From an uncultured Gemmatimonadota bacterium (GTDB taxonomy: Bacteria; GCA-2686955), in contig CAZBBK010000017.1 in NCBI GenBank assembly GCA_964490075.1, positions 1-64,000 of the forward strand: 64,000 nt of DNA. Direction: 5' to 3'. Positions 13,039 through 60,465 of this stretch are shown here, piece by piece; the stretch's first letter is position 1, and each line of letters begins with the position of its first letter. Under the pieces are notes generated by a model. The model made no database searches. It was not told the origin of the DNA and saw only the letters and a list, made by a program, of their open reading frames with translations. A program made the translations under genes and the position numbers.

Positions 13039-13135
13039 GCTGCATGTCTCCAAGGGCGATAGTCACATTGACTGAAGCCGAGAATAGCATTCTGCTGGAC
13101 GAGCAGCAACTGAGGATCCAAGTGCGCGACTTTCT

Positions 13136-13780: not shown

Positions 13781-13792
13781 GTCGCGGTCATC

Positions 13793-14029
13793 ATGGCGTT
13801 GACGGATCGCGCCGCTGCTGTGACGCGGTTGGTGGGCGCGGGATCGCCGAGCCCGACTTCCGGCCGAGGGCTCCTGGAGGGGACGGTGGAGTTCACGGTT
13901 CCGGAGGAGGCCGATCTCGGCAACTACCTCCTCGCCCTGCGCGCCGAGGAGGAGGAGGAGCTGGTCGATGTGCGGATGATTCGGCGGTCGTGGCCGGCGG
14001 AGCTCCGAGGCGGCAGCCTGATGTTGTGA
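13793..14029 (+). CDS. Hypothetical small protein or fragment
   Basis: Short ORF with host-like codon usage. Confidence 0.3.
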   Translation: MALTDRAAAVTRLVGAGSPSPTSGRGLLEGTVEFTVPEEADLGNYLLALRAEEEEELVDVRMIRRSWPAELRGGSLML

Positions 14030-14084
14030 TCCCGGTCCTCACGCTCGCACTCGAGCCACTGCCGAGCACCACACAGGGCGCCTG

Positions 14085-14500
14085 TCATGGCCGAGACTCA
14101 CGCCATTCAGGCGAAGAACGTGGCGACCATATCGGCGCATCGCCCAGGTAGACCACGAACGCCGCCGAGATGCGCCCCGCCTCGACCGCGGTCTCCAGGC
14201 CCCGAGCGCTTTCGGGGCGCCATCGCGGCGACGCCTTCACCTCGATGCCGACGGCGCGCCCGGCACGGGACCAGATGAAGTCGACCTCAGTGCCCGCGGG
14301 AGTGCGCCAGAAGGACAGCTCGCCACGGCGGCGTCGCGGGCGATCCCCGCCACGTTTGTGAGCTGCCCGTTGGCCGGCGCGGCGACCTCGAGAAAGCGAC
14401 CCAAGGCATCCAGGTGCCGCACGTCCGCCTCGATGCGCACCTCCCGGCTCACGTAGTTGGCCACGTAGGCCTCGAGCAGCTCGGTGCGCGTTCGGGGATC
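14085..14500 (-). pseudogene. AAA+/DUF4143 ATP-binding protein remnant
   Basis: Two frames: LEAYVANYVSREVRIEADVRHLDALGRFLEVAA...GIARDAAV and LSFWRTPAGTEVDFI...GIEVKAS; middle and N-terminal ATPase missing. Confidence 0.75.
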
Positions 14501-14652
14501 GCTCTTCCGCCGCTGGACTTCCAGGCATGGAGGCGCGCATTCCATGTCACAATGGCGCTTTCCGGGCGCCCCCCCTCGATCGGGAGGCGTCCAATCCAAA
14601 CAACCGCGCCGCGCGGCGATACGCGGCACGCGCGCGACCAGTGGAGACATCG

Positions 14653-16416
14653 ATGTCCAAGAACCTGCGCATCGCGAACTGCTCCGGCTTCTACGGCGAT
14701 CGTCTGACGGCGGCGAAGGAGATGGTCGAGGGGGGACCGATCGACTTCCTGACCGGCGACTACCTGGCCGAGCTGACGATGCTGATCCTGTTTCGGGACC
14801 GGCTGAAGGACTCGAGCCTGGGCTACGCGCGCACCTTTTTGACGCAGATGGAGCAGGTGTTGGGGACCTGCGCCGATCAGGGGATCAAGGTGGTGGCCAA
14901 CGCGGGGGGGCTCAACCCCGCCGCGCTGGCCGAACAGATCGACGGCATCGCGCAGCGCCTCGGCGTCGCTCCGAAGGTCGCCTGGATCGAGGGGGACGAC
15001 CTCTCCGGCCGCCTGGAGGAGCTGCAGCAGCGCGGCAATCCCCTGGCCGACAAGTCGACCGGTCGGCCGCTCTCGGAGCTGAGCGAGCGCGTGCTTTGCG
15101 CCAACGCCTACCTGGGCGCCTGGCCGATCGTCGCGGCGCTGGAGCGTGGCGCCGACATCGTGGTCTGCCCGCGCATCACCGACACCGCGCTGGTCGTGGG
15201 GCCCTCCGCCTGGCACCACGGTTGGCGGCGCGACGACTGGGATCGGCTGGCCTCGGCCACCGTCGCCGGCCACATCCTCGAATGCGGCACCCAGTGCACC
15301 GGCGGCAACTACTCCTTCTTCGAAGAGGTCGAGTCCTTCGACCAGCCCGGATTCCCGATCTGCGAAATGGAGGAGGAGGGCAGCTTCACGGTCACCAAGC
15401 ACGACGACACCGCCGGACTGGTGTCGATCGGAACGGTGACTTCGCAGCTCCTCTACGAGACCACCGACGCGCGCTACCTGACGCCCGACGCCACCGCCCG
15501 CTTCGACACGATTCACCTGGAAGACGCGGGCCCCGACCGCGTCAAGGTCAGCGGGGTGCGGGGCGAGCCGCCGCCCGAGACCCTCAAGGTGGCGATGCTC
15601 TATCTGAGCGGCTACCGCAACGCCGGCACCATCCTGCTCACCGGTCTCGACATCGAGAGGAAGGCCGAGATCGTCAGCGAGGCATTCTGGAAGCTGATGG
15701 GGGGACGGGAGAGCTTCGACGAGGCGCGCACCGACCTGATCGACCTGACGCGCCCCGACCCCGACAGCAACCCGCACGCCTACGCCAGGCTGCGCTTCTC
15801 GATGCGTGATCGCGATCCCGACAAGGTCGGGCGCCGCTTCTTCAACAAGATGGTGGAGCTGGCGCTCTCCAGCATTCCGGGGTTCACGGTGCCGACCAGC
15901 TTGCGCAAGAAGGCGTCGCCCTGCGCGTCGTTCTGGGATGCGCTGGTGCCGCCGGAGGAGATCGACCAGGTGGTGGTCGTCGACGGAGAGCGGATCCCCG
16001 TCCCCCACACCGACCGGCCCGACGAGCCGCCCGCCCTGCAGATGCCCGAGGAAGGGATCCCGCCGCCGCCGACCGGTCCGACCCGGCGGATCGCGATCGG
16101 CCAGGTGCTTGGCTCGCGCTCCGGCGACAAGGGGGGCGCGGCCACGCTGGGGGTCTGGGGGCGCACCCCGGAGACCTACGCCTGGGCGGTCGACTACCTG
16201 AGCGTGGAGCGGATGAGAGAGATGATTCCGGAGGCGCGCGAGCTGCGCATCGAGCGCTTCCTGATGCCCAACATCCTCTCGATCGGATTCCTGATCGACG
16301 GTCTGCTCGGCGAGGGAGCCAGCGCCTCGACGCTGATCGACCCGCAGGCGAAGTCGCTGGGTGAGTTCTTCCGGGCGCGCTTCGCCGACGTCCCGGTCGC
16401 CCTGATCGAGGAGTAG
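14653..16416 (+). CDS. atuA: Acyclic terpene utilization AtuA family protein (DUF1446)
   Basis: LRIANCSGFYGDR, DFLTGDYLAELTM, NAGGLNP, AGHILECGTQCTGGNY, RSGDKGG, DPQAKSLGE. Confidence 0.92.
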   Translation: MSKNLRIANCSGFYGDRLTAAKEMVEGGPIDFLTGDYLAELTMLILFRDRLKDSSLGYARTFLTQMEQVLGTCADQGIKVVANAGGLNPAALAEQIDGIAQRLGVAPKVAWIEGDDLSGRLEELQQRGNPLADKSTGRPLSELSERVLCANAYLGAWPIVAALERGADIVVCPRITDTALVVGPSAWHHGWRRDDWDRLASATVAGHILECGTQCTGGNYSFFEEVESFDQPGFPICEMEEEGSFTVTKHDDTAGLVSIGTVTSQLLYETTDARYLTPDATARFDTIHLEDAGPDRVKVSGVRGEPPPETLKVAMLYLSGYRNAGTILLTGLDIERKAEIVSEAFWKLMGGRESFDEARTDLIDLTRPDPDSNPHAYARLRFSMRDRDPDKVGRRFFNKMVELALSSIPGFTVPTSLRKKASPCASFWDALVPPEEIDQVVVVDGERIPVPHTDRPDEPPALQMPEEGIPPPPTGPTRRIAIGQVLGSRSGDKGGAATLGVWGRTPETYAWAVDYLSVERMREMIPEARELRIERFLMPNILSIGFLIDGLLGEGASASTLIDPQAKSLGEFFRARFADVPVALIEE

Positions 16417-16472
16417 GACCAGGACCGAACGAGGAGCGGCGGGCCCCGTGAGACCCGCCTTACTTCGTGTAG

Positions 16473-18623
16473 CTACTCGTCCTCCATCTCGAGCAGATCC
16501 ATGTCGCCTTCCGCGGTGCTCTCGAGCACCTCGTCGCCGATCGGGTCGCCGGAGGCGTCCATGTAGCCGAGCATCCGCCCAGAGGCGTCGAGCGACGCCA
16601 GCATGCCGCCGGAGGCTTCCAGCGACGCCAGCATGCCACCGGAAGCGTCGAGCACCGCCAGCATCGCGCCGCTGCCTTCGAGCATGCCGATGATCCCGCC
16701 CGAGGCCATCAGCGAGTCCATGAACTCGTGGCCCGAGGCGTCGAGCAGCGAGAGCATGCGGCCGGAGGCGTCGAGCATCGACAGGATCCTCCCCGAGGCG
16801 TCGAGCATTCCGAGAATGCCGCCCGAGGCATCGAGGAAGCCGAGCATCAGGCCAGAGGCGTCGAGGAACGCCAGCATTCCGCCGGAGGCCTCGAGCATGG
16901 CGAGCAGCCCGCCCTGGCCGGTCATCAGCGACTTCAGATCGGTCCCCGGAATCTGCCAGATCACGACCTCCCCAGACTCGTCGTCATAGAGGCAGAACAG
17001 GCCTTCGGGCGTCTCGATGAAGAGCACCAGGCCGAGCTCGGGGTCGTCGATGACCACTCCGAACTGGGTGGCCGGAACGACAGCCGCCGGCAGCTCGTTC
17101 TCGTCGACATAGCCCTCCAGCTCGTCCAGCGGCAGGGGAATGATCGACCGCCAGTCGGACAGCGCCGCGACCGGATCGATCAGCCCGTAGCCGTGCTCCG
17201 GATCCCATCCCGGCTCGCCGAGGTCGATGGCGCTCTGCACGATGATGTTGCGCACGTCGAGCGGGGTCAGCTCCTGGGAGGTCGCGCTGGAGTTCGACAG
17301 GATCAGCGCCGCCAGCGCCGCCACGTGGGGCGCCGCCTGGGAGGTGCCGGCGCTGAACCAATAGCCCACCTTGCCGGGCCTGCGATGGCCGATCGAGCTG
17401 CTCAGGATGCCGTCCGGATAACCGTCGTGATCCTGGTCGCGGCGCACGCCGCCCGGGGCCAGGACGTCGAGGGTCATGCCGTAGTTGGAGTACGGTGTGC
17501 GGGCGCCGAATCGATCCGACGCACCCACCGCGATCACCTCGTTGTAGGCCGCCGGATAAGAGACGCTCGGCACACCTTTGTTGCCAGCCGCGGAGATCTG
17601 CACGATCCCCTGCTGGTCGGCGTCCAGCACCACCTGGCGCAGGTAGGGACCGGGATCGAAGCCGGGCGGGAAGGAGACGCTCATGTTGATGACGCGGTAG
17701 GGATAGTCCTGGTCGATGATGTGCTGGATGCCGTCGGCCAGGGTCTCGGTGGTGCCCTTCCCGTGCTCGTCGAGGACCCGCACCGGCGCCAGGGTGAAGA
17801 AGGGCGCCATGCCGGCGATCCCTCGATTGTTGTCGAGCGAGGTGTGGATGATGCCGGCCACGTGGGTGCCGTGCTGGTTGAGATCGAAGCCGTCGGGCTC
17901 GTTGTCGACCAGGTCGATCGCGGCGTCGATGGCCAGCGACATATCGTTGTGGCGCTTGCAGTACTTGCCGCTGCGCCGGTGATTGCCGCCGCGCCAGGCG
18001 ACGCCCGAGTCGAGCACCGCGATCAGCAGGTCGCCGGTCGGGGCGGTGCCGTGCTCGATGGTCCAGGCGGTCTCCATGTCGAGCATCTCGAGGTTCCACT
18101 GGTGGCGATAGTGGCGGTCGGTGGTCGCCCTTCCCCCCGGGTAGCCGCTGGAGCCGCACACCGCGTTGGGCGAGGCCGCCGCCACCCGCGGGTCGGAGCC
18201 CAGGAGCTCCAGCAGCTCGGTCAAGCCGCTGCGGTCGGCCAGCGGGGCCCGGCGGCCGAGCCGCGCTAGGCGACGAGCGATCGCCGCCGGCGCCGGAGTC
18301 CGCACCTTGAACCAGCCATGCGGCAGACCGTCGCGCTCGATGGTGAGTCCGTAGTCGCGCAGCAGCTCGGCGCGGCGCGTGCCACCGATCCCGGGCCGAA
18401 GCTGGATCAGCAGCTCACGGTCGACGATTTCGACGTGGGCACCCAGACGACCGAGAGGGCTGGCGATGGTCGACCGTCCGCCAGCCGACGGGGCCGCGAC
18501 GGCGCTCTGGGGCGAAGCGAGCGCGGCACTCGACGCGAGGGCGAGGAGGCTCAGGGCGGCGGGTGCCACGATCGACCAGGGCGATCGTCCCGTCGCGTGA
18601 CCGGGGGGTTCGACTCGAAGCAT
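16473..18623 (-). CDS. S8 (subtilisin-like) serine protease with C-terminal decapeptide repeats
   Basis: Triad IAVLDSG / HGTHVAGII / GTSQAAPHVA, oxyanion AAGN; signal peptide and prodomain; start ATG 18623 after CAGGAG. Confidence 0.9.
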   Translation of the reverse strand: MLRVEPPGHATGRSPWSIVAPAALSLLALASSAALASPQSAVAAPSAGGRSTIASPLGRLGAHVEIVDRELLIQLRPGIGGTRRAELLRDYGLTIERDGLPHGWFKVRTPAPAAIARRLARLGRRAPLADRSGLTELLELLGSDPRVAAASPNAVCGSSGYPGGRATTDRHYRHQWNLEMLDMETAWTIEHGTAPTGDLLIAVLDSGVAWRGGNHRRSGKYCKRHNDMSLAIDAAIDLVDNEPDGFDLNQHGTHVAGIIHTSLDNNRGIAGMAPFFTLAPVRVLDEHGKGTTETLADGIQHIIDQDYPYRVINMSVSFPPGFDPGPYLRQVVLDADQQGIVQISAAGNKGVPSVSYPAAYNEVIAVGASDRFGARTPYSNYGMTLDVLAPGGVRRDQDHDGYPDGILSSSIGHRRPGKVGYWFSAGTSQAAPHVAALAALILSNSSATSQELTPLDVRNIIVQSAIDLGEPGWDPEHGYGLIDPVAALSDWRSIIPLPLDELEGYVDENELPAAVVPATQFGVVIDDPELGLVLFIETPEGLFCLYDDESGEVVIWQIPGTDLKSLMTGQGGLLAMLEASGGMLAFLDASGLMLGFLDASGGILGMLDASGRILSMLDASGRMLSLLDASGHEFMDSLMASGGIIGMLEGSGAMLAVLDASGGMLASLEASGGMLASLDASGRMLGYMDASGDPIGDEVLESTAEGDMDLLEMEDE
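16548..16913 (-). repeat. About 12 tandem 30-bp coding repeats, consensus G(G/R)MLxxL(D/E)AS
   Basis: GGLLAMLEAS GGMLAFLDAS GLMLGFLDAS GGILGMLDAS GRILSMLDAS GRMLSLLDAS GHEFMDSLMAS GGIIGMLEGS GAMLAVLDAS GGMLASLEAS GGMLASLDAS GRMLGYMDAS. Confidence 0.9.
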
Positions 18624-18844
18624 CTGCGCTCTCCTGCTGGGGTCCGGAGCGGAGGCGGGTTGCCCGGAAAGGCGCCGCCGCCAAACATCGATGGCCGAGA
18701 TGAGCACGAGCCGTGCCGGATATTCGTTGCAATATGCAACGCCATAACTCGTTGCAATACAGCCTGTTGAGGAGCACGATGGGAGAATCGCGAAATGCAA
18801 AGGACGAATCGCGGCCGATCTGTGCGGCGCTTGCGCAGTGCCGT

Positions 18845-21800
18845 TCAGGCGCTGAACAGCTGTTCGGAGAAGTGCGACTCACCTTCGGCGAGGGCGCTCA
18901 GCCGCTCGGTGATGACCACGCAGTTGCGGCCGCCGCGCTTGGCCTCGTAGAGCGCGCCGTCGGCGCTGGGCAGCAGCAGCGCGAGGTCGCCGTCGCGCAC
19001 CGCGGACAGGGCGACGACGCCGATGCTGCAGGTCAGGGCACGCCCGCTCACCAGGGGCGCCTGCTCGATGCGGGTGCGCACTTCGTCGGCGATGTCGAAG
19101 GCTCGATCGGCGCGAGTGCGGGGCAGCACCACCGCGAACTCCTCGCCGCCGAGACGGCCGACCGCCCCGCGCTCACCGACCACCTGGCGGATCAGGGCGG
19201 CGGTCTCGGCCAGCACCCGGTCGCCCGCACCGTGTCCGAAGTCGTCGTTCACGGTCTTGAAATGATCGATGTCGAGCATCAAGAGCGCCAGGGAGGTGCC
19301 GCGCTCGAGGGCGCGCAAGAACTCCTCCTCGAGACGCTGCAGCAGGTGATGGCGCATCGAGACCCGGGTCAGGGAGTCGATCGTGGCGCGCTCGAAGAGC
19401 TGCGCGTTGCGGATCGCCAGCGCGGCCTGGTTGGCCAGTGACTGGAGGACGAAGAGCTCCTCGCGGCTGACGTCGTAGACCGCCCGGTCGTCGTCGACGT
19501 AGAGCGCTCCGATGACCCCCTGCATGTCGGCGACCGGCACACCGATGATGAAGCGCAGCTGCAGCTTGCGGATCGAGGAGCGGCGCGAGATCTCCTCGGC
19601 ATCGGCCACGTTGGTGACCACGCGCGATTCCCCGGAACGGAAGATGTCTTCCACGAACGACCTGCTGTAGTGCACGCCGTTGCGCGCGGCGCCGTCCCGA
19701 TAGGCCGAGGCGGCCAGCTCGGTCGGGCTCTTGGGGGTGGATCGCAAGAACACCAGGGCGCGCCGCGCGCCGGTGAGCTCGACGGTCTTGTGGGCAATCA
19801 GATCGAGCAAGGGCGCCAGCTCGTGAATCGCGTTGATCTGCAGCGTGATGTCGAGCAGGTGCTCGAGCAGATGGTCCCCGGGCGCGAAACGCGAGGTCTG
19901 GACTCGCAAGGGCTCGTCGTCCTCCAGCTCCATCAGGAGCCGGTTTGCCTCGCCATGGTCGGCCAGCGCCCCCAGCCGCTCCAGCCCCCCCAAGGCATGC
20001 TCGAGCAGCGCGCGCGCCGCGCCGTGGCGACCGGCCTCGAGCAGCAGACGGGCACGGGCCACGTCGACCCGGTGGGCGGCGTGATCGAGGCGCAGGTCGC
20101 TCATCTCGCGGCGCGCCCGGGCGTAGCGATGCAGCGCCTTGGCATCCGCCCCCTGGCGCTCCGCGACCGCCGCCGATGCCGCCAGCAGGTGCGCCAGCTC
20201 GGCCCGCGCCCCGATCTTGCGGGCGGAGCGGATGGCGCCGGCCACCAGGGCACGCGCCAGAACCGGGTCGCCGTGCTCCGCCTCCCAGGTAGCGATCCGC
20301 CGCGTGGCCTCGATCCCCTCCGGGCTCTCCAGCAGCGCCTCGCTCTCGCTGCCGGGCGCGGCGGCGGCGAGGCCGCGCACCGCCTTGTCGAAGCGCGCGC
20401 GCGCCGCCTCGGCCTGCCCCTCGAGGAGATCGAGCTCGCCCAGGTTCCCCTCGAGGATTGCCTCCGCGGCGGGATCGGCCAGGCTCCGCGCCAGCTCGAT
20501 TCCTTCCTCCAGCATCCCCCGCGCGCGCCGTGCCTCGCCGCGATCTCTGAGCAGCATCCCCAGGTTGTTCAGGGTTCGCATCCGTGTGCGCAGGTCGCCG
20601 ACCCCGCCCGCGACGGCCAGCACGTCGCGATAGGCCTCGGCCGCCTCCGCCCACTGGCCGCCATCGGACTGCGCCACCGCCCGATTGGAGAGCGCGACCA
20701 GGTAGCCGCGCAGATCGTTGGCGCGCCGGCTGCGCTCGGCCGCATCGTGGAAGCTGCGCGCGGCCGCGGCATACTCCGAGCTCTGGTAGTGAATGGCGCC
20801 GAGCGCCACCTCGCAGGCGGTCGCGCGCCGGTGATCGTCCAGCTCCTCGAAGACGGCGAGGGCGGCGGCGTAGGTGTCGGCGGCCTGGTCGAGTTGGCCG
20901 CGGGCGATGTCGACGCGGGCCCGGGTGCTCCCGAGCCGCGCTCGCTGCTCGCGTCCGTCGGGGACTCGGTCGACCAGCGCTTCGGCCTGGTCGAGGGCGC
21001 CGACGCAGCCCTCGATGTCGCCCTTGGCGAGATGCACCAGCCCCAGGCGGTGCAGCAGAATCACCCGCAGGCTGCCGCCGGTCGACAGGGGCAGCGAGGC
21101 GGCCGCCGAGATTCCGACCTCGAGCGCCTCCCTGGCCGCGTCGGGCTGCTCGATCCCCAGGGCGGCTTTGGCGAGGCAGGCGGCGGCGCGCGCGCGGCGC
21201 TCGCCTTCGCGAGATCGCAACACCGGATCCAGCGCCTCGCCCACCTCGTGCCCGCGGCCGGCGCGTTCCAGCGCCTGCCCCCACGACAGCCTCAACTGCT
21301 CGACCATCGCTTCCGGGACCCGGTCGCAATGGGTCGCGACGAAGCTCTGCAGCGATTCCGCCTGCTCCACGTAGAGATGAAGCGCCGCGAAGCACTCGCT
21401 CGCTTCGTCGAGGGCGATCTTGGCGGCGTGGTAGTCGTCGCTCCAGGCCAGGTGCGAGCCGATCCGCGCCAGCTTGCGCGGGCGAGCCGAGCGTTGGCAG
21501 CGCTCCAGGCTGGCGCGCAGTCCGTCCGCGGCGCGGCCGTGGAGCACCGCGCGCTGAATCGGATCCAGCTGCAAGAGCAGCGCCTGGGCGGTGGACGCCG
21601 CGGAGAAGCGCAGCGTGGGATCTTCCCAAGGCGCCATCGGATCGATCCTGCGGGTCACGAAGCCCTGGTCCTCGAGACGGTCCAGGAGGCCCTCGATCTC
21701 CTCCGGCGCACGGCGCGCGACTGCCGCCACGGTGGCCACGGTGGCCTCTTCGAGCGTGGCCAGCGCCTCCACGACCGCCCGCTCGGCGGCGCCGAGGTCG

Positions 21801-46860: not shown

Positions 46861-48654
46861 TCAGCATCCCGGCTTGTATCCGTGCATCAGGTAGATGATG
46901 CGATAGACATCGATCAGGTCGATTCCGCCGTTGCCGTCCATGTCGGCGTAGGCGGACTGTAGGACACAGTCGGGCGGCGGACCGACCGCGCCGTAGTAGT
47001 GCCACCACATGGTGAGGATGGCGCACTGCACATCGACCACATCGACCGAGTCGTTGCCATCCAGATCGCCCGCCATCGGATGTTCGTAGGCGCCCATGTC
47101 GGCCACCGGGAAGCCGAGGCCGGTGTCGGGGGCGAAGGACTCGTCGACATCCACCGCACGCGCCAATCCGTCTAGATCGGCCGTCAACGAATCCGGCAAA
47201 ATCTCGCTGTTTCCCGCATCGACCGCCGGCGAGCAAGGGGCCAGACGCAGATCGTCGTCCTCTGTGCCTTCCCAACCGTCGGCTCCTTCCGGATCGAAGA
47301 ACATCGGATCCTGATCGATGTTGCCCTTGGTCTCCGCGATCCCCTGCACGCAGCTGTAGCTCACGTCGAAGGGCGCGGCGAGCGCGAAGAGCTGGGTCGC
47401 GAGATCGTCGTTCTCGTTCGCCGCGCTGTTGTCGCGCACGATGCTGTTCAAGAGCGGCACCGGAATCGGAGACGCTGAGAAGATGCCGGCACCCGCGCCG
47501 TAGGCGTGGTTGCGGGTGATGGTGCAGTGCAGGATGCCGTCGGGAACGCCGACCGGGCCAAAGTAGATGCCCGCGCCGAAGTCCAGCGCCCGGTTTCCGC
47601 TCAGGACAGAGTTGCTCATCTGCAGCGCCCCCGTCGCGAACATGCCGCCTCCCAGACTGGCATAATTGCCGAACAAGCGACAGTCGCGCATGTCCAGGCT
47701 GCCACTGGCGAGCAGGCCGCCCCCACTCTTGCCGGCAGCATTTCCGACAAAAGTGCAGCCGTAGAGACGCAGCGTTCCGCCTACGGCAGCGACGCCGCCT
47801 CCCCGGGAATCGGATCCGCTCACGGCGTTGTCGCGGAAGGCGCAGCCGATCATCTCGAGATCGGCGTGGAAAGCCCCCAGCGCGCCGCCATAGATCACGT
47901 CATCGGGATCGATCGGATCGCTGCTGTAGTTCTCCTCGAAGAGGCAATCCTCGAAGACGACGCCGACTCCGCCGTTGATCTGCACCGCCGCGCCGCCGTC
48001 GTTCTCGTCCATGTTGCCGGAGAAGTGGGCCAGGTTGGAGCGGAAGACGCAGCGCCTGATCTCCACCTGGGAAGGCTCGTAAGCGGGCAAGGCCAGCTTC
48101 AGCGCGGCACCGGCCGCGCCGTCCTCGAGAGTCTTGGCGGCGAAACCGCCGCTGAGCTCGAAACCGTTCAGGGTCGTGTTCCGGGTCAGGGCGAGAATCT
48201 GGTAGCTGTTGTCGTTGAAGGTGGCGAGCGAGTCGAGATCGTCGTTGCCGGCCAGGTCCCCGCTCAGAACCGTCGGATGGCTTGGAGGATCCTGCTCGCC
48301 CAGAGCCAGCTCGTCGCCGGCGAAGCCGCCGTAGAGTCCGACTCGCTTCGGCACATCAAAAAGCGCATCCTGGTCATCGGACTCGATACCCGGTCCGTCG
48401 ACCGGCAGATAGACACCTTAGGCGACCCAGATCTGGCAGGTTGCATTCGGGTCGCCGCCGACGATCAACTCGGCCGACTCGATCGCCGACTGCAGTGAGG
48501 TGTAGGCGGTCGGCCAGCTGGCACCGTTCCCGGGTTCTGGGGCGTTCTGGTCGACGTAGACCACGATCGGATCGCCCAAGGCCGAGGCGCCCAGCAGCAA
48601 TCCGGTGGCGATGCACATGCCGAAGGCATGGCGCACGTACCCTGTCTCGATCAT
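46861..48654 (-). pseudogene. Beta-helix secreted protein with dockerin-like tail, in-frame TAA at 48418-48420
   Basis: ORFs 48418..48684 and 46861..48354 share one frame; paralog reads WVAEGVY (GAA) where this copy has TAA. Confidence 0.8.
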
Positions 48655-48680
48655 TGCTCTCTCCAAGAGATACGAAAAGG

Positions 48681-48708
48681 GCACCCGGGCCCGATCGGGC
48701 CCGGGTGC
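48681..48708 (-). terminator. Perfect palindrome, likely terminator between the paralogs
   Basis: GCACCCGGGCCCGATCGGGCCCGGGTGC followed on minus strand by CCTTTTCG. Confidence 0.6.
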
Positions 48709-48724
48709 GGCTCAGGCTGTATGT

Positions 48725-50443
48725 CTACAGCTCCGGCGCGCAGGGAGGAGGATCGCCTACCGCCATCTCGGCGATGCAGTCGGCATCGGCCTTTTCGATC
48801 AGGCCGTTGGCGTTCATGTCGGCGTAGGCCGGCTGCGTGACGCAGCTCGGCGGAGGACCGACGGAACCACCTTCCTGCCAGAACCGAGTCAGGTTCGTGC
48901 ACTGCACGTCGGTCACGTTGACGTAGCCCGAACCGTTGACGTCACCGGCCATGGGATGCTCATAAGCCCCCATGTCGACAACCGGATCGCCCACGCCCGT
49001 GTCGGGCGCGAAGTCGTCATGCACGGCATCGACGCGGGCGTAGCCGTCGAGATCAACAGTCAGCCAACCCGGCAGATAGAGGCTGTTCCCGGAGTCGACG
49101 GCCTTCGAGCTGACGGCGAGACGCAGATCGTCGTCGGCGTTGCCCGGCACGTCGTCGATGCCGTCGGCGTCGAAGAAGAGCGGGTCCTGGTTCAGATTGC
49201 CGAAGGTCTCCGCGATCCCTTGCACGCAGCTGAAACGCACGTTGAAGGGCGCGGCCGCGGCGAAGATCTGTGCTCCGAGCTCATCCACACCGTTTGCCTC
49301 GTTGCCCCATACGATGCTGTTGCCCATCGCCACGGGAATCGGGCTGCTGAGGAAGAGCCCGCCTCCGGCACCGCCCGAGCTGTTGCCGACGATCGTCGAG
49401 TTGACGATGGCGCGCGGATCCCAGATCAGACCGAGATAGGCGCCGCCGCCGCGCGATTCAGCAACGTTGCCACGCAGCACGCAGTTTGCCATCTTCAACT
49501 GGCCGGAGGCGAAGAAGCCGCCGCCGTGACCGGCCTGGTTGCCGGTGAAGACGCAGTTCGCCATCAGCAGATAGCCGTTGCTGTTGGCCAGGCCGCCGCC
49601 CCAGGAGTTGGAGCCCATTACCTGATTGTCGCGGAAAGTGCAGTCGATGAGCTGGAGCTCGCTGTCGAAGGCGCCCAGCGCGCCGCCATAGACGATGTCG
49701 TCCGGGTTGGTCGCGTCGCTGCTCAGATTGTCGATGAACAGACAGTCGCGGAAGGTGACGCGCTTGGTGCTGTTGATCTGCACCGCGGCGCCGCCGTCCA
49801 TCTCGTCGGCACAGCCGGTGAAATCGGCACGGTTATGGCGGAAGGTGCAGCGATTGATCTCGATGCCGGAAGGATCGGAGCCGCCCAGGTAGATCTTGAT
49901 CGCGGCGCCGGCACCGCAGTCGGCCTCCACGAAGCCGCCCGAAAGCTCGAAACCGTCGAGGGTCGTGTGCCAGCCGAGGATCATGATCTGGTGGCTGTTG
50001 TCGGCCATGTTGTCGAAGGTGCCCGGCAAGTCGTCCTGCGCCAGGTCGCCGCTCAGGATCGTCGGATGGAGCGCGGGGTCCTGCTCGCCGAGCGAAACTT
50101 CGGTGCCGGCGAAGCCGCCGTAGAGGGCGCTGCCCTTGGGCGGATGGAAGAGCGCGTTCTGGTCTCCAGGCTGAATTCCGGCGCCGAAATCGGGTCGGTA
50201 GACACCTTCGGCAACCCAGAGCTGGATGCTCGCTTGCGGATCCTGCTCGGCGATCTGCTGCGCCTCGCCGATGGCGTCTTGCAGGGCCTGGAAGGCGTTT
50301 GTCCAGCTCTCGCCGGTTCCGGGCGCGGGAGCGTCCTGGTTCACGTAGATGACGACTTCGTCGGCCAGGGCCGCACTGCTGAGCAGCAGCCCGGCGGCGG
50401 TGCACATCCCGAGGGCGCGACGTACTTGTCGTGACTCGAACAT
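48725..50443 (-). CDS. Beta-helix secreted protein with C-terminal dockerin-like Ca-binding repeats
   Basis: Signal peptide, GESWTNAF, LYGGFAGTE, TILSGDL, VDMGAYE, GDVNGSGYVNVTDV...ADMNANG. Confidence 0.85.
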   Translation of the reverse strand: MFESRQVRRALGMCTAAGLLLSSAALADEVVIYVNQDAPAPGTGESWTNAFQALQDAIGEAQQIAEQDPQASIQLWVAEGVYRPDFGAGIQPGDQNALFHPPKGSALYGGFAGTEVSLGEQDPALHPTILSGDLAQDDLPGTFDNMADNSHQIMILGWHTTLDGFELSGGFVEADCGAGAAIKIYLGGSDPSGIEINRCTFRHNRADFTGCADEMDGGAAVQINSTKRVTFRDCLFIDNLSSDATNPDDIVYGGALGAFDSELQLIDCTFRDNQVMGSNSWGGGLANSNGYLLMANCVFTGNQAGHGGGFFASGQLKMANCVLRGNVAESRGGGAYLGLIWDPRAIVNSTIVGNSSGGAGGGLFLSSPIPVAMGNSIVWGNEANGVDELGAQIFAAAAPFNVRFSCVQGIAETFGNLNQDPLFFDADGIDDVPGNADDDLRLAVSSKAVDSGNSLYLPGWLTVDLDGYARVDAVHDDFAPDTGVGDPVVDMGAYEHPMAGDVNGSGYVNVTDVQCTNLTRFWQEGGSVGPPPSCVTQPAYADMNANGLIEKADADCIAEMAVGDPPPCAPEL

Positions 50444-50580
50444 TGCTGTCTCCGGTGATCGGTCGGGGGGGATTCGAACGGGACCGTACCGGAGGGAACG
50501 GGGGGATTGCGGGCAATATAACCTCACAATTCCTGCTGTCATCCGGAATAGATTGCCCAGGTTCCGCACTGGGTTGGGGG

Positions 50581-50967
50581 TTATGGCGCGGACCCTTGGC
50601 GACGCGGCCCTTGCTCCCCGATCGCCACCACCCGTCCCACCACCGCCTCGAGCGCGATCCACTCATCGGTCGACGGCCGCGCATCCCCCCGCACCCGCAC
50701 CCGATCCCCGTCCCGATCCCGATCCAGCCCGACGACCCGGTGCAGGATCATCCGCCCCGCCGCGGCCTGGTAGAGCACGATCTCTCCGATCCGCGGGCCG
50801 CCGCCGCCGACCGGCGCGACGGTCACCAGCTCAAGGTCGCGGATCGCCGGATGCATGCTGCGCCCCGTCGCCCGGAAGCGCAGCTCGCCGCCGCGCCCCA
50901 GCACCTCGCGCGCCACCCCTCGCAACTCGTCGCGATCGAGGAAGAGGGGTGAATCGTCGCCCCTCAC
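50581..50967 (-). CDS. S24/S26 family peptidase
   Basis: LRFRATGRSMHPAIRD...GEIVLY...ILHRVV...RGDA..STDE. Confidence 0.85.
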   Translation of the reverse strand: MRGDDSPLFLDRDELRGVAREVLGRGGELRFRATGRSMHPAIRDLELVTVAPVGGGGPRIGEIVLYQAAAGRMILHRVVGLDRDRDGDRVRVRGDARPSTDEWIALEAVVGRVVAIGEQGPRRQGSAP

Positions 50968-51908
50968 CGCGCCGCACCCTGCTCCGCCTCGAGCCCCAGC
51001 GCGGCCACCACGCGCGCGTCCGGCACGAACTCGAAACGCTCCGGCGGGCGGGCCTCGACCACCTTTTCGACCAGGTCGGCGGCGGCGGCGAGCTGGTCGG
51101 GGTCCCAGTAGGGCGGAAAGCAGCGCGCCATCAAGGTGGCCACCGCCTCGAGCCGCGCCAGTGGATGGACACGGTTCGACGCGCCGTGCTCCAGGAAGAG
51201 GATTCGATCCAGGGGCGCGCCCCCGGCGGCGACCTGGTCGACATCCCCATGCCAGGGCGTGCCGAAGATCCAGGGCTCACCGTCGATCAGGCGCAGCACG
51301 TTCCGGTCGTCGCTGAGCACCTCGAGCGCCGCCAGGTCGCTGCCTCGCGGACGCGCGCCGGCGGCCTCGATCAGCACCCGACTGAGCGTGCTCTTGCCGG
51401 CGCCGGAGGTCCCGGGGAAGAGCAGTCCCCGTCCCCCCACCCGCACCGCCGTGGCGTGCACGATCACCCCGGCGCCACACCCCAGCAGCTGCCCGAAGAG
51501 CAGCTCGTCGAGCGGGTAGTCGAGCGCCGGCAGGCGTTCGCCGAAGCCGGCCTCGGGCGGGTTCATCCACAGCTCCACGCGCGCCGGCACGGAACTCCCC
51601 TGCTCCGCGATCCATGCCTGGCCGTGGATTCGCCCACCGAGATGGGGCGCGAAGACGGTCAGCAACCGGCCCCCGCGTGCCTGTTCCAGCCGCCACAGGC
51701 GTGCCGCCTGGAAGATCGGTTCGAGGTCGTCTCGTGCCGGCGCCGGCCCCCGATGCACGCGCACCTCCACGTCAGGATCTTCGCGGGGGGCGCGCTGGAC
51801 GAAGGGGAGGTGCGAGCGCGCCAACGCGATCGGCGGGAGTCCCGAGTCGGCGACCAGGTCGAGAACGAGTCCGGCGATCTCGAGCTGGAGGGACGACGCG
51901 TCTCTCAG
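50964..51908 (-). CDS. HPr-kinase-related P-loop protein
   Basis: IVHATAV...LFPGTSGAGKSTLS...LSDDR...FGTPWHG; frame extends upstream to a CTG overlapping the precursor stop (ORF track starts at TTG 51824). Confidence 0.82.
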   Translation of the reverse strand: MRDASSLQLEIAGLVLDLVADSGLPPIALARSHLPFVQRAPREDPDVEVRVHRGPAPARDDLEPIFQAARLWRLEQARGGRLLTVFAPHLGGRIHGQAWIAEQGSSVPARVELWMNPPEAGFGERLPALDYPLDELLFGQLLGCGAGVIVHATAVRVGGRGLLFPGTSGAGKSTLSRVLIEAAGARPRGSDLAALEVLSDDRNVLRLIDGEPWIFGTPWHGDVDQVAAGGAPLDRILFLEHGASNRVHPLARLEAVATLMARCFPPYWDPDQLAAAADLVEKVVEARPPERFEFVPDARVVAALGLEAEQGAAR

Positions 51909-52093
51909 GTACCCGCCTCTGAGCAGTTGACCGGCTGGCGGGAGAAGTCGTTGCAGCCCGCTCCCCCGGAGTTGGAATGGGGGCCCGGGTTCTTCAGCCG
52001 CTTGCAGGCGGCCAGTACGGCCTCCTCGGCCACCAGGTGAACCCGCCTCACCTCTGGCCTACTCCACTGACGTTTCTTGTCGTTCTTGGCCAC
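51905..52093 (-). CDS. Putative RiPP precursor peptide (62 aa, 3 Cys)
   Basis: MAKNDKKRQWSRPEVRRVHLVAEEAVLAA-CKRLKNPGPHSNSGGAGCNDFSRQPVNCSEAGT; sits between rSAM and kinase genes. Confidence 0.82.
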   Translation of the reverse strand: MAKNDKKRQWSRPEVRRVHLVAEEAVLAACKRLKNPGPHSNSGGAGCNDFSRQPVNCSEAGT

Positions 52094-52107
52094 GGTTCAC
52101 CCTGTTC

Positions 52108-53310
52108 CTAGAGCCCGGGCAGGGTCGGCAGCGGGTGCAGCTCCCGCGCCTCGGGCGGCGTCTTGCTGCCATTCGTCGGAACCCTCGATGCATCACCTCG
52201 AGAGAAGGCTCGCTCGCGAGCTACGGCGATGTTGTGAAGATAGTCCACGGTTGTCTCTGGGTCACCGTTTTCCATCTCCGCCATCGCCGGGCAAGCCCCG
52301 CAGAGCGAAATTAGATCGCAGATAGTACAAGCATACTCTCGCGAGTAGCGGGTTGCACGTTCAATCGGCAGAGCGCGCTCCCAGCCTTCGCGAAAAGATC
52401 CAGTCTTGAGACCATAACCCGGCCTGAGGGACATTCCGCACATCGTCAGCTCACCATAGGCGGTGATGTTGAAGTTCACCAGACCGGCGCCGCAGTGGTA
52501 GAGGCGCCCGTCGTCGACCTGGCGCCGATCGAACTTGCACATGAACTCCACCCAGGCGTCGACCCGCTCCTGGTCGTCGAGATCCATCGCCAGCACGGCG
52601 TCCGGCGCCAGGCGCACCGCCAGCGGCGCGTGGCCGCCGTCCTTTCGGGGATTGATCACCTGGTCGAAGCGGAACTCCAGGCCCAGCGCTTCGACCCAGT
52701 GCTTCATATCGTCCATCTCGTGGTGGTTCAAGGTCGTGGCCACGCTCTTGAGCTCGATCGGAACGCCACGATCGAGCAGCCGGCGGATGCCTTCGCGGGT
52801 CCGCCGGTGCGATCCACGCTTGGCGGTCATCGTCTCGTACGTGGCGCGGGTGTGGCCGTAGAGCGTGATCTCGACCGTGAAGGGCCGCCACTCGGCGAAG
52901 AGGTCGGCCAGCGCGTCGGTGACCAGTGCTCCGTTGGTGAACACCGTGATCAGGAAGCCGAGCTTCTTGGCGTGCAGGTAGATCTCGGCGAAATCCTTGC
53001 GAATCAACGGATCTCCGCCGGTCATCAGGAGCCACAGGGTGCCTGCCTCGGCCAGCTCGTCGAGTATGCGCAGAACCTGGCCGGTGGTCAGCTCGAGGCG
53101 ATCCGGTCCCGGTCCGGTCACGATGTAACAGTGGGCGCAATCGAAGTTGCAGCGGTTGGTCAGCTCGAAGCTGCCGGCGATCGGCACCCGCTCGCTGAGC
53201 ACCCTCTCGTGGATGGTGCGCGAGAACTCCAGGTAGGAGACCGCGGGCACGACCGTCGACTCGGTCACGCTCGCGCGCTGGCTTCGGTGGGGGTCGACTG
53301 AGCAATTCAT
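52108..53310 (-). CDS. Radical SAM / SPASM domain protein
   Basis: ELTNRCNFDCAHCY, MTGGDP, FTNG; SPASM CGAG...CGM...CTICDLISLCGAC. Start ATG 53310 or GTG 53268. Confidence 0.93.
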   Translation of the reverse strand: MNCSVDPHRSQRASVTESTVVPAVSYLEFSRTIHERVLSERVPIAGSFELTNRCNFDCAHCYIVTGPGPDRLELTTGQVLRILDELAEAGTLWLLMTGGDPLIRKDFAEIYLHAKKLGFLITVFTNGALVTDALADLFAEWRPFTVEITLYGHTRATYETMTAKRGSHRRTREGIRRLLDRGVPIELKSVATTLNHHEMDDMKHWVEALGLEFRFDQVINPRKDGGHAPLAVRLAPDAVLAMDLDDQERVDAWVEFMCKFDRRQVDDGRLYHCGAGLVNFNITAYGELTMCGMSLRPGYGLKTGSFREGWERALPIERATRYSREYACTICDLISLCGACPAMAEMENGDPETTVDYLHNIAVARERAFSRGDASRVPTNGSKTPPEARELHPLPTLPGL

Positions 53311-53347
53311 AGCAAGGTGGAAGTCATGGTAGGACGAAGTCGCGTCA

Positions 53348-54259
53348 TCAGAGGCTAACCCAACCCGGCAAGTCCCAATTTCCCGGATGACGCAGCAAAT
53401 CGAGGTCCAGGTGCCCGGTGCCTTCGTGCAGGACCAGCGCCGGCCCGGGATCCCATCCCGCCGCGGGTCGCGCGCCCAGCTCGAGCCAGGCCGCGGCCCA
53501 GGGCCCCTCGAGCGCCGGGACCAGGGCCAGCGTGGCGCCGAGTCGCCGGGTCTCGTGGCGGATCTGCGCGTGCGCGTCGGGCAGCGCGTCGAGATCCGCC
53601 ACCAGGTCGCGCAGGGTGACCACGCGGCGGCCTTCGATCTCGTTGCACTCCAGTGCCAGTCCCCGCCCCGCGGCGCCGGCGAGCAGGCGCACGCCCCCAC
53701 CCTTCCCCGCCGTCCGCCTGGTCCACGGCGATTCCGCCCCCGCGCGATCCACCACGATCGGCAGATCGGCCCCCAGGGCCGCGGCGTCCGCTGGCGACCT
53801 CCGGCTCCATCCCCCCGCCCCGCTCCAGCGCCGCCGCGGCGAGAGCGCCAGAATCCGCAGCGGAGCAACGACGCGGAAACGGCGGCCGGCGACCCGGTCC
53901 CAGAGACGCAGCGCGCGTTCGTTCGCCATCCCGAAGAAGAGCCGGCCCTCCGCCAGGATCCGGCGCATCAGGATCGGGGCCCGGCCGCGTCCCGCGTCAT
54001 CGACCAACAGGCGCCCGATCTGCCAGCCTTCGACCGGCTGGCCCCGGATCCGCAGCGGCACGCGGCGCGCGGCCACCATGCCGTGCACCGAGTCGCCGCG
54101 CGTCAAGAGGAGGATTCGGGCCCGCCCCTCGGTCCATCCCCGGCGCAGCTCCGCCACCACCGCAAGGGCGGCGGCCGGTGGCTCCCCCCCCGCACTCAGG
54201 CAGCCCGCCCAGGCGGCATCGCTCACCGCCCCCGGCTCCGCGACCTCCCAGCGCGCCAA
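53348..54259 (-). CDS. GNAT-like protein (divergent)
   Basis: VHGMVAARRVPLRIRG...IGRLLVDDAGRGR...FFGMANERA pattern resembles GNAT motifs A/B. Confidence 0.55.
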   Translation of the reverse strand: MARWEVAEPGAVSDAAWAGCLSAGGEPPAAALAVVAELRRGWTEGRARILLLTRGDSVHGMVAARRVPLRIRGQPVEGWQIGRLLVDDAGRGRAPILMRRILAEGRLFFGMANERALRLWDRVAGRRFRVVAPLRILALSPRRRWSGAGGWSRRSPADAAALGADLPIVVDRAGAESPWTRRTAGKGGGVRLLAGAAGRGLALECNEIEGRRVVTLRDLVADLDALPDAHAQIRHETRRLGATLALVPALEGPWAAAWLELGARPAAGWDPGPALVLHEGTGHLDLDLLRHPGNWDLPGWVSL

Positions 54260-54263
54260 CTCC

Positions 54264-54560
54264 TCAGCCTTCCGGCCGGACCGACGCGATCGCTCCCACC
54301 GCCTCGAGCTCCTCGAGCACGCGGCGCACGTCGCTCTCGATTTCGCCGCGCTCTCCCTCGAAGCTCGCCAGCGCCAGCGTCACCAGCTCATCCCCGGAGC
54401 GCCCCCGCTCGAGCGCGTCCCAAAGAAAGCCCGCCGTCTCGTTGAGAGTGAAGATCCAGTCCTTGTCGCCCAGCGAACGATGGATCGGGATCAGCAGCCG
54501 CTCCCCGGCGATGTTGCGGGTGACGATCAGAGGGCTGCGTTGAAAGCGAAGTGCTGGCAC
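54264..54560 (-). CDS. PqqD family protein (RiPP recognition element)
   Basis: IVTRNIAGERLLIPI...IFTLNETAGFLWDAL...IESDVRRVLEEL. Confidence 0.9.
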   Translation of the reverse strand: MPALRFQRSPLIVTRNIAGERLLIPIHRSLGDKDWIFTLNETAGFLWDALERGRSGDELVTLALASFEGERGEIESDVRRVLEELEAVGAIASVRPEG

Positions 54561-58482: not shown

Positions 58483-59207
58483 GATCCGCGCCTTCACCAC
58501 CCGTGCGGCCGCTCCTCCAAGAGCGGAAAGCTCTCGCGGGTGGTCGGGAGCCAGCGATCGATCTCCAGCGCCGGTGCGGCGGCGATGCGCAGCTCGTGGA
58601 TCCCTCCTCTACGGGGCGCCGGCCGCTCCCAGTGTGGAGCCTCGCCATATCGAAACCTCAGAGAGGCCCTGGCGTTTCGATATAGCGCTTCTCGAGCGAC
58701 GCACTTCGCGAAGAAGCGCGGGCCCAGCGGGAGCTCGCGGGCCTTCGGGGCTCCATGCGCGGCTCGGGGGGGCGGTCTCTTCGCGGCCGCGCGCGGCGGA
58801 TGAACTGAGTCAGGCGCTGATTCTGGCTCTCGCGCGGTCGTTGGTGGCGGCTGAGCCGGGTCAGCGGGTGTTGTTGGTCGAGCTGCGGTCGTTCGTGCGG
58901 GCTGAGCCGGGTCTGTGGGAGGTGTTGGTTCTGGTGTCTTGATGTGGCGCTTCCCCCACGCGAAGGCGCCCGGATCGCCTCCCAACGTGCCCCTGCCCGA
59001 CTCCGTTGCCCGAATCGGGCATGGGCAGGGGCTCGATGGGAGGCGTTCCGGGCGCTTTCTGGGCGGCGAAGCGCCATATCGAGACGCCAGCGGAACGACA
59101 CCGTCGGGAGAGGAGAGGCGACGGCGTCGTAGCAGCAAGGCCGGAATCCGGTCGTATCTAGCGATTCCGATCGAGGAACTGAAGGTTGCGGCCAGATTCT
59201 GGTCACA

Positions 59208-59339
59208 ACTCACCACTCTCGATCGAGAGTCGCGAGGTACGACGCGAATACGGTCGTGGCTCCGGGTTCATCGCGATGAGCGGCGAGTTGTGGCGGATAT
59301 ACGGTCGTAGCTCCTCACTCTCGATCGAGAGTGGTGAGT
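59208..59339. repeat. 23-bp perfect inverted repeat with internal 16-bp palindrome
   Basis: ACTCACCACTCTCGATCGAGAGT (59208-59230) and its reverse complement at 59317-59339. Confidence 0.8.
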
Positions 59340-59623
59340 CGTGTCGCGAAACGGCGTCATGACTCGCGGTTCCGGGCGCGGAGCTGGGCTTTGTGTCGGG
59401 GTCGGGCGCGGGCGCGGGGGAGCGCGGCGTGCACCGGATCCTCCAGCGCCGGCTCGACCTCGACCCGCAGGCTGTCGCGGGCGCTGCCGAGTGCAGGCGC
59501 GAGGCCCGGGGCGAGCCGGAGGGGGAGCGACGGGGCTGTGTATCGGGCGGCGTGCGCGAAGTTGTGTAACGACATGATGTTACAGGGCTTGTACTGTCAC
59601 GCGGTTTGCTGTAAAAGGGTGAT

Positions 59624-60028
59624 GTGCAGCAGGATTCGTCAACCGTGGACAACACGCCGGAGCCCGTCGGCTGTAATCGCATCGCCGATTCGCTCTCCTG
59701 GCAGTGTGCGACCCGAGCCGATCTGCACGTGGCTCGCTTGGTGCACAAGGGTGAGGAGCCGGACGCGGTCTACCCGATGGCGGCCGCCACCCTTGTCGAT
59801 GGGTTCCTCGCGTGGCTCGACCGCATCGGGGTGCTGGCTCGGCTCAAAGCCCTCCGAGGCGAAGGCGTGCGGCGCCAGGTGATCCCCTTCCGCCAGTTCG
59901 TCTACCTCTACTTCTTGCGCTGTCTGGCCCTGCTCTTCGGACGTCGCGTGAAACGGCCCCAGGTCGGAGCGGCTGCCACCGTCGACGCGCTCTTCGAGCG
60001 GCTGAGGAGCGCCCAAAACGGGCCGTAG
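59624..60028 (+). pseudogene. Probable transposase N-terminal fragment
   Basis: WQCATRADLHVARLVHKGEEPDAVY...LVDGFLAWL...VRRQVIPFRQFVYLYFL recalls N-termini of DDE transposases; catalytic domain absent. Confidence 0.5.
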
Positions 60029-60465
60029 CCGTCGCCCTCGGCCGTTCCTGATCAGGGGCCCGGAACGGAGCCGCGTCGCGCCAGCGCGACCAAAGCCGCG
60101 AGCCGAGGTCGATGAGCGGTCGTTCTCCCGATCTCCGCCGCCGCGGTCACGCGTTGCGGCCAAATTCCGGTCGCAACTCCCATCTCCGCGGCCGCAATCC
60201 CCGGTTGCCACCGCCCGGGGGCCACTCGATCGCGCGCAGAGCTGGCAGACTCCTCGTCAATGAGACGGCAGGGCGCTTCGCTTGCCGCGCCATATCGAAA
60301 CGCCAGAGAGTCCCCCCCTCCCTTGAACCAACAACCCCGCTCTGGCTAAGGTCCCGGATCGTTTCGGAGCGGGGAACCCGGCGCGCCCGCTGCTCGTAGT
60401 CGGCGGGATGCGCGCCGGGCGGCTCTCTCCGGCGCAACTCGCGATACCACGCTCCCCAGGGATCC

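Follow-up and report, generated by a model that had tools for sequence, protein, structure and literature searches.

What do six small genes make that lie packed between positions 50581 and 54560 of a contig from an uncultured Gemmatimonadota bacterium? The genes occupy the minus strand of the 64,000-nucleotide stretch analysed here (contig CAZBBK010000017.1; hereafter, the window), and an original prediction, made from the letters and their open reading frames (ORFs), had read them as a pathway for a ribosomally synthesised and post-translationally modified peptide (RiPP), comprising a RiPP recognition element (RRE), a GNAT-like protein, a radical S-adenosylmethionine (SAM) enzyme with a SPASM domain, a precursor, an HPr-kinase-like protein and an S26-type peptidase. 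Our analysis supports this peptide-modification reading and refines it. Judged from their sequences, the six genes most likely act on a small peptide with three cysteines through cross-linking, phosphorylation, trimming and acylation, and the operon probably represents a branch, with a radical SAM enzyme, of the peptide pathways built on an RRE, an HprK kinase and a signal-peptidase-like enzyme, following a logic like that of the LPP system; it is not a SynChlorMet cassette, and orthologs of its GNAT are confined to the window's lineage. The type of cross-link, the phosphorylation site and the acylation are what we infer.

The six genes are tightly packed and co-directional, as predicted: from the RRE gene to the peptidase gene, gaps of 4, 37 and 14 bp are followed by two 4-nt overlaps, and tblastn of the window's genome found each of the six proteins in single copy, distant radical SAM proteins aside. 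Family searches upheld the PqqD-like RRE (98 aa, 54264–54560; PF05402, E 4.5e-13), the radical SAM enzyme (400 aa, 52108–53310; PF04055, E 3e-22) and the S26-type peptidase (128 aa, 50581–50967; TIGR02228, E 1.6e-8), and the six-gene cassette indeed holds no transporter. Other assignments stood in part. A SPASM-type cysteine pattern at the C-terminus is kept in 51 relatives of the radical SAM enzyme, but Pfam returns no SPASM match; His151, the Walker A motif and Asp200 of the kinase are invariant among 35 homologs, but matches to HprK-family hidden Markov models (HMMs) are weak; and the GNAT fold comes from modelling alone, the ORF having no Pfam or NCBIfam match. At the level of sequence, all catalytic motifs in the cassette enzymes are intact.

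The 62-aa ORF (51905–52093), which holds three cysteines and ends in Gly-Thr, is by the pattern of its codon changes and its company a true, selected gene that travels with the cassette enzymes. Comparison with the related loci L001 and L002 (L-numbers denote loci; G000 is the window's own genome, and G001 onwards are other genomes in a 401-genome sample) gives 18 and 19 synonymous and 0 non-synonymous codon changes in core residues 26–62, and 10 synonymous and 6 non-synonymous changes in leader residues 1–25 in each case. In G004, a genome of the window's class whose radical SAM enzyme is 44% identical, 32 of the 37 core residues are identical to those of the window peptide. With a profile built from 13 peptides, 900 of 1472 candidates scored at E<=0.01; the 121 top homologs all carry three cysteines and a Glu six residues ahead of the first one and show Tyr/Trp-x-x-Pro 20 residues ahead of that cysteine, and their last residue is Ser in 116 cases and Thr in 5. 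Because these homologs were chosen by the precursor profile itself, we recounted on 41 precursors found only by their position beside the enzymes; these were hand-picked from regex candidates, with opposite-strand and Cys-free chance matches dropped and the L074 peptide kept, and several are close relatives of one another. Terminal Ser/Thr was present in 36 of the 41, compared with 15% of 11,376 background ORFs, and three cysteines in 31. The precursors have no family match in NCBIfam, Pfam or the PDB, and the Atlas clusters matched by a precursor homolog are unnamed. A lipobox reading of the Leu-Ala-Ala-Cys segment was rejected, as there is no hydrophobic signal region and the register differs across the family. 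At L032 (5741–6629), three precursors with near-identical leaders stand in tandem, two of them with short Cys-free tails.

Defining the cassette as a radical SAM gene plus a kinase gene within 5.5 kb yielded 60 loci (duplicate L084 left out; L083 repeats L009), which map to 37 of the 401 sampled genomes and at which contig ends lower the counts of neighbours. The conserved small ORF on which the original prediction had staked its reading is present in 44 of these 60 cassettes (41 by regex, 3 by profile); for three of the 16 cassettes without it, precursor genes lie elsewhere in the genome, and some other loci are cut by contig ends. An RRE accompanies 54 cassettes, the peptidase 40, NTP_transf_5 16, Peptidase_C25 15, an ABC transporter 6 and the window's GNAT 3. 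The radical SAM enzyme occurs in 43 of 401 genomes and the precursor in 15, all 15 inside the former set, and relatives of the cassette span at least seven phyla. Fusions join the radical SAM enzyme to the kinase in L013 and an S24 peptidase to a GNAT in L032. Variants also occur: L012, L013 and L014 carry three radical SAM genes, one being the kinase-fused copy of L013, and the cassette at L035 (8233–12674) has an inserted extra radical SAM gene (DUF512-like) and a PRMT-like methyltransferase gene. Glycosyltransferase and NTP_transf_5 genes neighbour the relatives in G004, L035 and L037; in G002 and G003, as in G004, an NTP_transf_5-like gene follows a sulfatase-like gene, and the window's own genome has an NTP_transf_5 gene at a contig end (L114:9120–10391, G000:C13), a candidate partner in trans.

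The RRE would almost certainly bind the W10-x-x-P13-x-V15 segment of the leader. Its family profile matches the lasso RRE TbiB1 (E 3.2e-18) and PDB entries 9x90 and 9x8z (E 2.7e-11 and 3.9e-11), which are PbaB1 and LppB complexes. The peptidase is a soluble archaeal/ER-type signal-peptidase homolog (S26B-like) that lacks any hydrophobic or membrane segment and whose nearest solved relatives are SEC11 (E 1e-12); of its putative triad, Ser37 is kept in 31, His76 in 32 and Asp101 in 26 of 32 relatives, with a spacing (39/25) identical to that of S29/H68/D93 in LppS. LppS is an RRE-dependent, SipW-like leader peptidase that cleaves after F-3/E-2/T-1, with a Tyr at -16 (PMC13381572), so that leader removal by a signal-peptidase-type enzyme, as originally proposed, now has an experimental precedent. 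We consider it very likely that the window's peptidase would remove the leader in an RRE-dependent manner. With Trp10 set at -16, Pro13 falls at -13, Val15 at -11, Glu24 at -2 and Ala25 at -1, and this register therefore predicts a 25-residue leader (52019–52093) and a 37-aa core starting at Val26 (51908–52018; Cys30, Lys31, Cys47, Cys57 and terminal Thr62), with an unmodified monoisotopic mass of 3741.75 Da; cleavage after Ala25 is reasonably probable. A modelled RRE-peptide-peptidase complex scored 0.78 compared with 0.01 for the best of three controls, past a mark that 116 of 157 solved complexes reach, as do 2 of 215 mismatched pairs, but this pass may show likeness only, because the job differs from the calibration (three chains, own alignments) and RRE-leader and SEC11/SPase structures have been solved. 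In the model, whose contacts agree to at least 70% between runs with a partner pLDDT of at least 87, peptide residues 16–29 and the N-terminal helix of the peptidase form the interface, as in the LppS model (PMC13381572). The model does not place the scissile bond, which, like the possible mere likeness, counts against leaning on it.

In the radical SAM enzyme, predicted cluster ligands are C51/55/58 and C270, C288, C325, C328, C334, C337 and H356. The CxxxCxxC motif and the six SPASM cysteines are kept in 49–51 of 51 cassette enzymes, and the seventh SPASM ligand is Cys in 42 of the 51 and His, at the position of His356, in the three of the window's lineage. Seven ligands for two clusters were the basis of the open-site proposal for AlbA and were seen in CteB, in which the AuxI site is open (PMC6231123). 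By this analogy, the seven-ligand pattern supports thioether chemistry without demonstrating the reaction, and it is reasonable to expect that the enzyme would introduce at least one Cys thioether cross-link into the core. The enzyme scores below the cut-off for all 25 NCBIfam families listed, and a placement of the cassette among SynChlorMet, HPr-rel-A, mycofactocin, PqqE, GeoRSP, PapB, AlbA or SkfB was rejected in the same way; sacti- and ranthipeptide maturase HMMs reach 52–68 bits, with cut-offs of 300–850.

The kinase (~314 aa, 50964–51908) keeps H151, G166, G171, K172 and D200 in all 35 homologs, and its profile matches HPr kinase structures at E 7.7e-5; the HMM matches reach 23 bits for TIGR04352 (HPr-rel-A; cut-off 200) and are also weak for TIGR04355 and TIGR04249. 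Its reading frame is open upstream of the first standard start, a TTG at 51824, and a conserved N-terminal strand lies in this upstream part. Because of that strand, and because both closest relatives keep a CTG at 51908, in one case with an in-frame stop shortly before it, we place the probable start at this CTG, which overlaps the precursor stop. Kinases of the HprK family are known to act on peptides: PsmK adds one or more phosphates to the terminal Ser of pseudomycoidin, PsmN attaches a hexose to the phosphate, and the terminal Ser of paeninodin is likewise phosphorylated by an HprK kinase (PMC6993621), whereas LppK phosphorylates core Ser3 (PMC13381572). Position 3 of the window core is Ala, which calls for another site; the strongest candidate is the terminal residue, Thr62, which the kinase would quite likely (poly)phosphorylate. 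Addition of a sugar to this phosphate by a nucleotidyltransferase encoded elsewhere is conceivable, and we rate it as the less probable outcome.

The gene between the RRE and the radical SAM enzyme (53348–54259) encodes a 303-aa tandem-GNAT acyltransferase-like protein that is specific to the lineage. A model built from a 7-row alignment reached a pLDDT of 75 (43 for the alignment-free model), Foldseek matched it to tandem GNATs, Eis and N-myristoyltransferases (best E 4.9e-10), and its Atlas feature matches are GNAT clusters (score 0.96). In the window's lineage, it may, on balance, acylate the new N-terminus or Lys31. A metagenome scan with the GNAT alignment gave no match, and P0138, listed in the P0002 cluster, proved to be an unrelated protein.

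The closest studied system, going by the accessible parts of its description, is LPP (Popov et al. 2026, PMC13381572), with LppA/B/K/S/N/D. Both have a discrete lasso-type RRE, an HprK-like kinase (here by invariant motifs and weak HMM matches), a soluble peptidase of the SipW/archaeal type in which Ser, His and Asp stand at the same intervals, and a [Y/W]xxP leader with Glu at -2, and NTP_transf_5 and polysaccharide genes are frequent neighbours of the window cassette's relatives. In contrast to our cassette, of which the radical SAM/SPASM enzyme is a core gene, LPP makes a linear product and has no ring-forming enzyme; its NTP transferase and MsbA-like transporter, both LPP core genes, are absent from the six genes and the flanks, with PF14907 found on other contigs. 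Within the LPP motif YxxPxVLxHQxIxFETxxS, the window matches WxxPxV and Glu(-2), but not HQ, Phe(-3), Thr(-1) or Ser(+3), the last being the LPP phosphorylation site; LPP was moreover described from Bacillota and has no GNAT. The accessible main text of that paper does not mention radical SAM, SPASM or C25, although Radical_SAM and Peptidase_C25 are column heads in its supplementary domain matrix, and its authors give the biological role of LPP as unknown. With the paeninodin/pseudomycoidin-type lasso peptides, as far as covered in PMC6993621, the cassette shares an RRE, an HprK-family kinase with a DD metal motif, a nucleotidyltransferase in many relatives and a hydroxyl residue at the C-terminus (Ser there, Thr here), but a macrolactam cyclase and a B2 protease are absent from the six proteins, and any ring would come by radical SAM chemistry.

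SynChlorMet (TIGR04248-04251) likewise combines a PqqD-like protein, radical SAM/SPASM enzymes, the HprK-like ScmC, an S26-like peptidase and a Cys-containing small ORF, but it has two radical SAM enzymes, not one, and another precursor. Its HMMs score low on the window (ScmC 17.9, cut-off 125; ScmE 75 and ScmF 58, cut-offs 400; ScmD no match), compared with 270, 416 and 563 for ScmC, ScmE and ScmF at the control locus L006, all three past the cut-off. At L006, a true SynChlorMet cassette (12313–19359) stands directly behind a cassette of our family, and a 106-aa Cys/Gly-rich ORF there (17227–17547), with a WxKP leader, is a candidate SynChlorMet precursor. The systems of the sacti- and ranthipeptide maturases AlbA, SkfB, CteB and PapB resemble the window's in a Cys-rich core, in RRE dependence and in a seven-position SPASM pattern, of which the window enzyme has the six cysteines, and the precursor has a Cys(i)-Thr(i+5) spacing as in thermocellin; the window differs from them in its separate RRE, its kinase, S26 and GNAT partners and its His as seventh ligand. 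The cassette thus fails membership of the LPP, SynChlorMet and lasso families, and the searchable literature, which leaves out most subscription journals and bioRxiv supplements, holds no description of this enzyme set.

In some relatives, the cassette or its precursor gene lies beside genes for surface proteins. One radical SAM clade in a quick tree (11 rows, SH-aLRT 100) has a giant secreted protein ending in Peptidase_C25 directly upstream in nine rows, the remaining two loci being cut upstream, and the His-Cys dyad is kept in the C25 domain of these proteins; in other clades, too, C25 borders the cassette (L037, L068), and a second cassette of G004 contains one. Three genomes whose own cassette lacks a precursor hold clear precursor genes at other sites, numbering 4, 3 and 8 (15 in all; two weak, partial matches in G218 are not counted). 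Of these 15, ten start within 272 bp behind a gene for a secreted protein ending in a shared domain, where position alone would predict 0.015, and another two immediately precede such a gene; in G218 and G366, near-identical precursor copies stand directly behind secreted-protein genes. The shared C-terminal domain spans ~110 residues, starts with Pro-Thr, often has a basic tail and has no Pfam family, and it recurs inside 12 of the 15 cassette-adjacent giant C25 proteins, the three misses being cut by contig ends. Loci L138–L151 (G218, G051 and G366) hold arrays of secreted proteins sharing this domain, which resembles a sorting signal for a PorU-like enzyme. The second G004 cassette (L152:4996–11333, G004:C74), one of a different make-up within the window's class, contains a small precursor, an S26-like peptidase, a PorU-like C25, a kinase, an RRE and a radical SAM gene.

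PorU of Porphyromonas gingivalis, the T9SS (type IX secretion system) sortase, is proposed to cut its cargo and join it to a linker, and it takes peptides from the medium if the natural acceptor is missing (PMC4560394). The relatives resemble this system in the C25 domain with its His-Cys dyad beside the cassette and in cargo-like proteins that share a cleavable-looking C-terminal domain; they differ in that their C25 proteins score below the PorU cut-off, that G218 and G366 lack a match to the T9SS C-terminal domain (G218 has 27 Pro-Thr domain matches and zero T9SS-tail matches) and that PorU attaches a lipopolysaccharide linker, a peptide anchor not being described in the accessible text of PMC4560394. 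No such adjacency exists in the window. Because precursor copies follow Pro-Thr cargo genes, the domain recurs in giant C25 proteins and PorU joins cargo to a linker, the modified peptide could be a ribosomally made protein anchor: the amine freed by leader removal would be joined by a PorU-like C25 transpeptidase to secreted Pro-Thr-domain proteins, and the nucleotidyltransferase would couple the terminal phospho-Ser/Thr to a surface glycan. In the window's lineage, the same amine would receive an acyl group from the GNAT and so become a lipid anchor, or be used by the genome's own PorU. The C25 inside the second G004 cassette counts in favour of such an anchor, which we nevertheless judge unlikely. 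Most of the 27 domain copies in G218 have no precursor directly behind them, four orphan precursors have no sorting-domain gene beside them (three in G051, one in G368), and the pattern comes from just three genomes, belonging to two families, in which a single unit may have been duplicated. Furthermore, a C25 match is missing from 12 of the 37 genomes with a cassette; across the sample as a whole, 155 of 401 genomes have one. The window's genome holds one precursor; its one Pro-Thr domain (carried by a T9SS cargo), its 38 T9SS-tail matches and its PorU and PorV-like genes do not lie near the cassette. At L116 (2886–8411, G000:C74), a PorU gene past the NCBIfam cut-off is followed by a PorV-family gene.

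How well does the proposed pathway hold against other explanations? Several observations weigh against it: the leader-position Glu is found in just 24 of the 41 neighbourhood precursors, as opposed to all 121 profile-chosen ones; five of the 41 end in a residue other than Ser/Thr; the LPP kinase targets a core Ser rather than the terminal residue; and the best HMM matches of the radical SAM enzyme are decarboxylating enzymes, not thioether formers. The top scores go to MftC (TIGR03962) and AhbD, both decarboxylating enzymes, with NirJ2 also among the top, so that the enzyme might instead act on the C-terminal Ser/Thr, by oxidative decarboxylation or a cross-link to it, with the cysteines as disulfide or metal ligands and the kinase priming this step or hitting an internal residue. 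The His at the AuxII site in the window's lineage would suit such chemistry, as would the position of the last Cys five residues ahead of the terminal Ser/Thr in 115 of 121 homologs, which recalls the Cys32-Thr37 link of Tte1186a/thermocellin (PMC8172795). We find this unlikely, given scores far below cut-off (98 bits against 265, 93 against 500), the three cysteines kept by most neighbourhood precursors, and members such as L007 that lack the last Cys yet retain a terminal Ser. Signal peptidases require small residues at -1 and -3, and the residues at these positions ahead of the invariant Cys-Lys fit that rule (Gly in 118 and Ala in 100 of 121). A later cut, at Ala29/Cys30 (Gly/Cys in most members), would leave a 33-aa core of 3387.53 Da with an exposed N-terminal Cys-Lys to be acylated; this seems rather improbable, as the LPP register sets P1 at residue 25, the modelled peptidase contacts end ahead of Cys30 and the window's own -3 residue is Leu.

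Acylation of the peptide itself is challenged by the rarity of the GNAT, whose ortholog was found in just 4 of 401 genomes, all of the window's class, and in just three of the 60 cassettes. It could be a passenger from a polysaccharide locus that acylates a sugar or another amine. The best-scoring family RRE of G004 is followed after 112 bp by a distant homolog of the GNAT (hhalign 93%, a match to the N-terminal half only) that stands downstream of NTP_transf_5 and glycosyltransferase genes, with the radical SAM, precursor, kinase and peptidase genes on another contig; that it stayed with the RRE after this split argues for a pathway role, whereas its polysaccharide setting, and the second RRE in another G004 cassette, argue for a passenger. 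We regard the latter as doubtful, since the gene sits inside the operon between RRE and radical SAM enzyme in three genomes, its fold matches the peptide-acylating N-myristoyltransferase and Eis, and unrelated GNATs have joined the cassette in L032 and L041. As for the finished product, we tentatively prefer a tag or anchor that is linked to glycan and serves the cell envelope, ahead of a diffusible signal, which is doubtful, and an antimicrobial, which is very unlikely. That none of the glycosyltransferase, nucleotidyltransferase, transporter and C25 genes occurs in the window's own flanks counts against the reading as a whole. The product may be a secreted signal or antimicrobial of no consequence to the envelope, its surface-protein and polysaccharide links reflecting co-regulation or shared genomic islands; the cassette genomes without C25, the ABC transporters flanking six cassettes, the four orphan precursors and a core that is near-invariant within the class, as a receptor ligand would also be, make this a serious if not favoured possibility. 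However, no transporter, sensor or immunity gene is present at the window locus, and the near-identical precursor copies behind secreted-protein genes in G218 and G366 fit a stoichiometric need better than a signal.

Two genes downstream of the operon (46861–50443) were rejected as members because they are not kept in L002, have no sorting-domain match and are separated from the operon by a promoter-like site at 50542–50515, itself a weak signal (one site, 0.3 expected). They encode two secreted paralogs in tandem (beta-helix / choice-of-anchor Q / dockerin-like, with 53% identity), which belong to a very large family in the window's genome, and a strong hairpin lies between them (48708–48681). 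Upstream, a cysteine-desulfurase-family gene was also set aside, being divergent and not a conserved neighbour in the ORF lists of relatives. Farther off, positions 58900–60100 form a repetitive, fragment-like stretch between annotated genes that resembles a mobile-element remnant. Elsewhere in the same genome (L115:9089–11708, G000:C1), a second PqqD-like ORF precedes genes for an ATP-grasp protein and a PLP (pyridoxal phosphate) decarboxylase-like protein, possibly a separate peptide pathway.

The family described here is widespread among bacteria that have been little studied, and the searchable literature names no product for it. It would add radical-SAM chemistry to a kinase/peptidase logic that was described only in 2026 (PMC13381572), and the six small window genes form a complete, cloneable set for which exact masses are predicted. 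Were the peptide indeed an anchor, a RiPP would serve as a structural linker for surface proteins, and as an acceptor for PorU-like proteases outside the type IX system.

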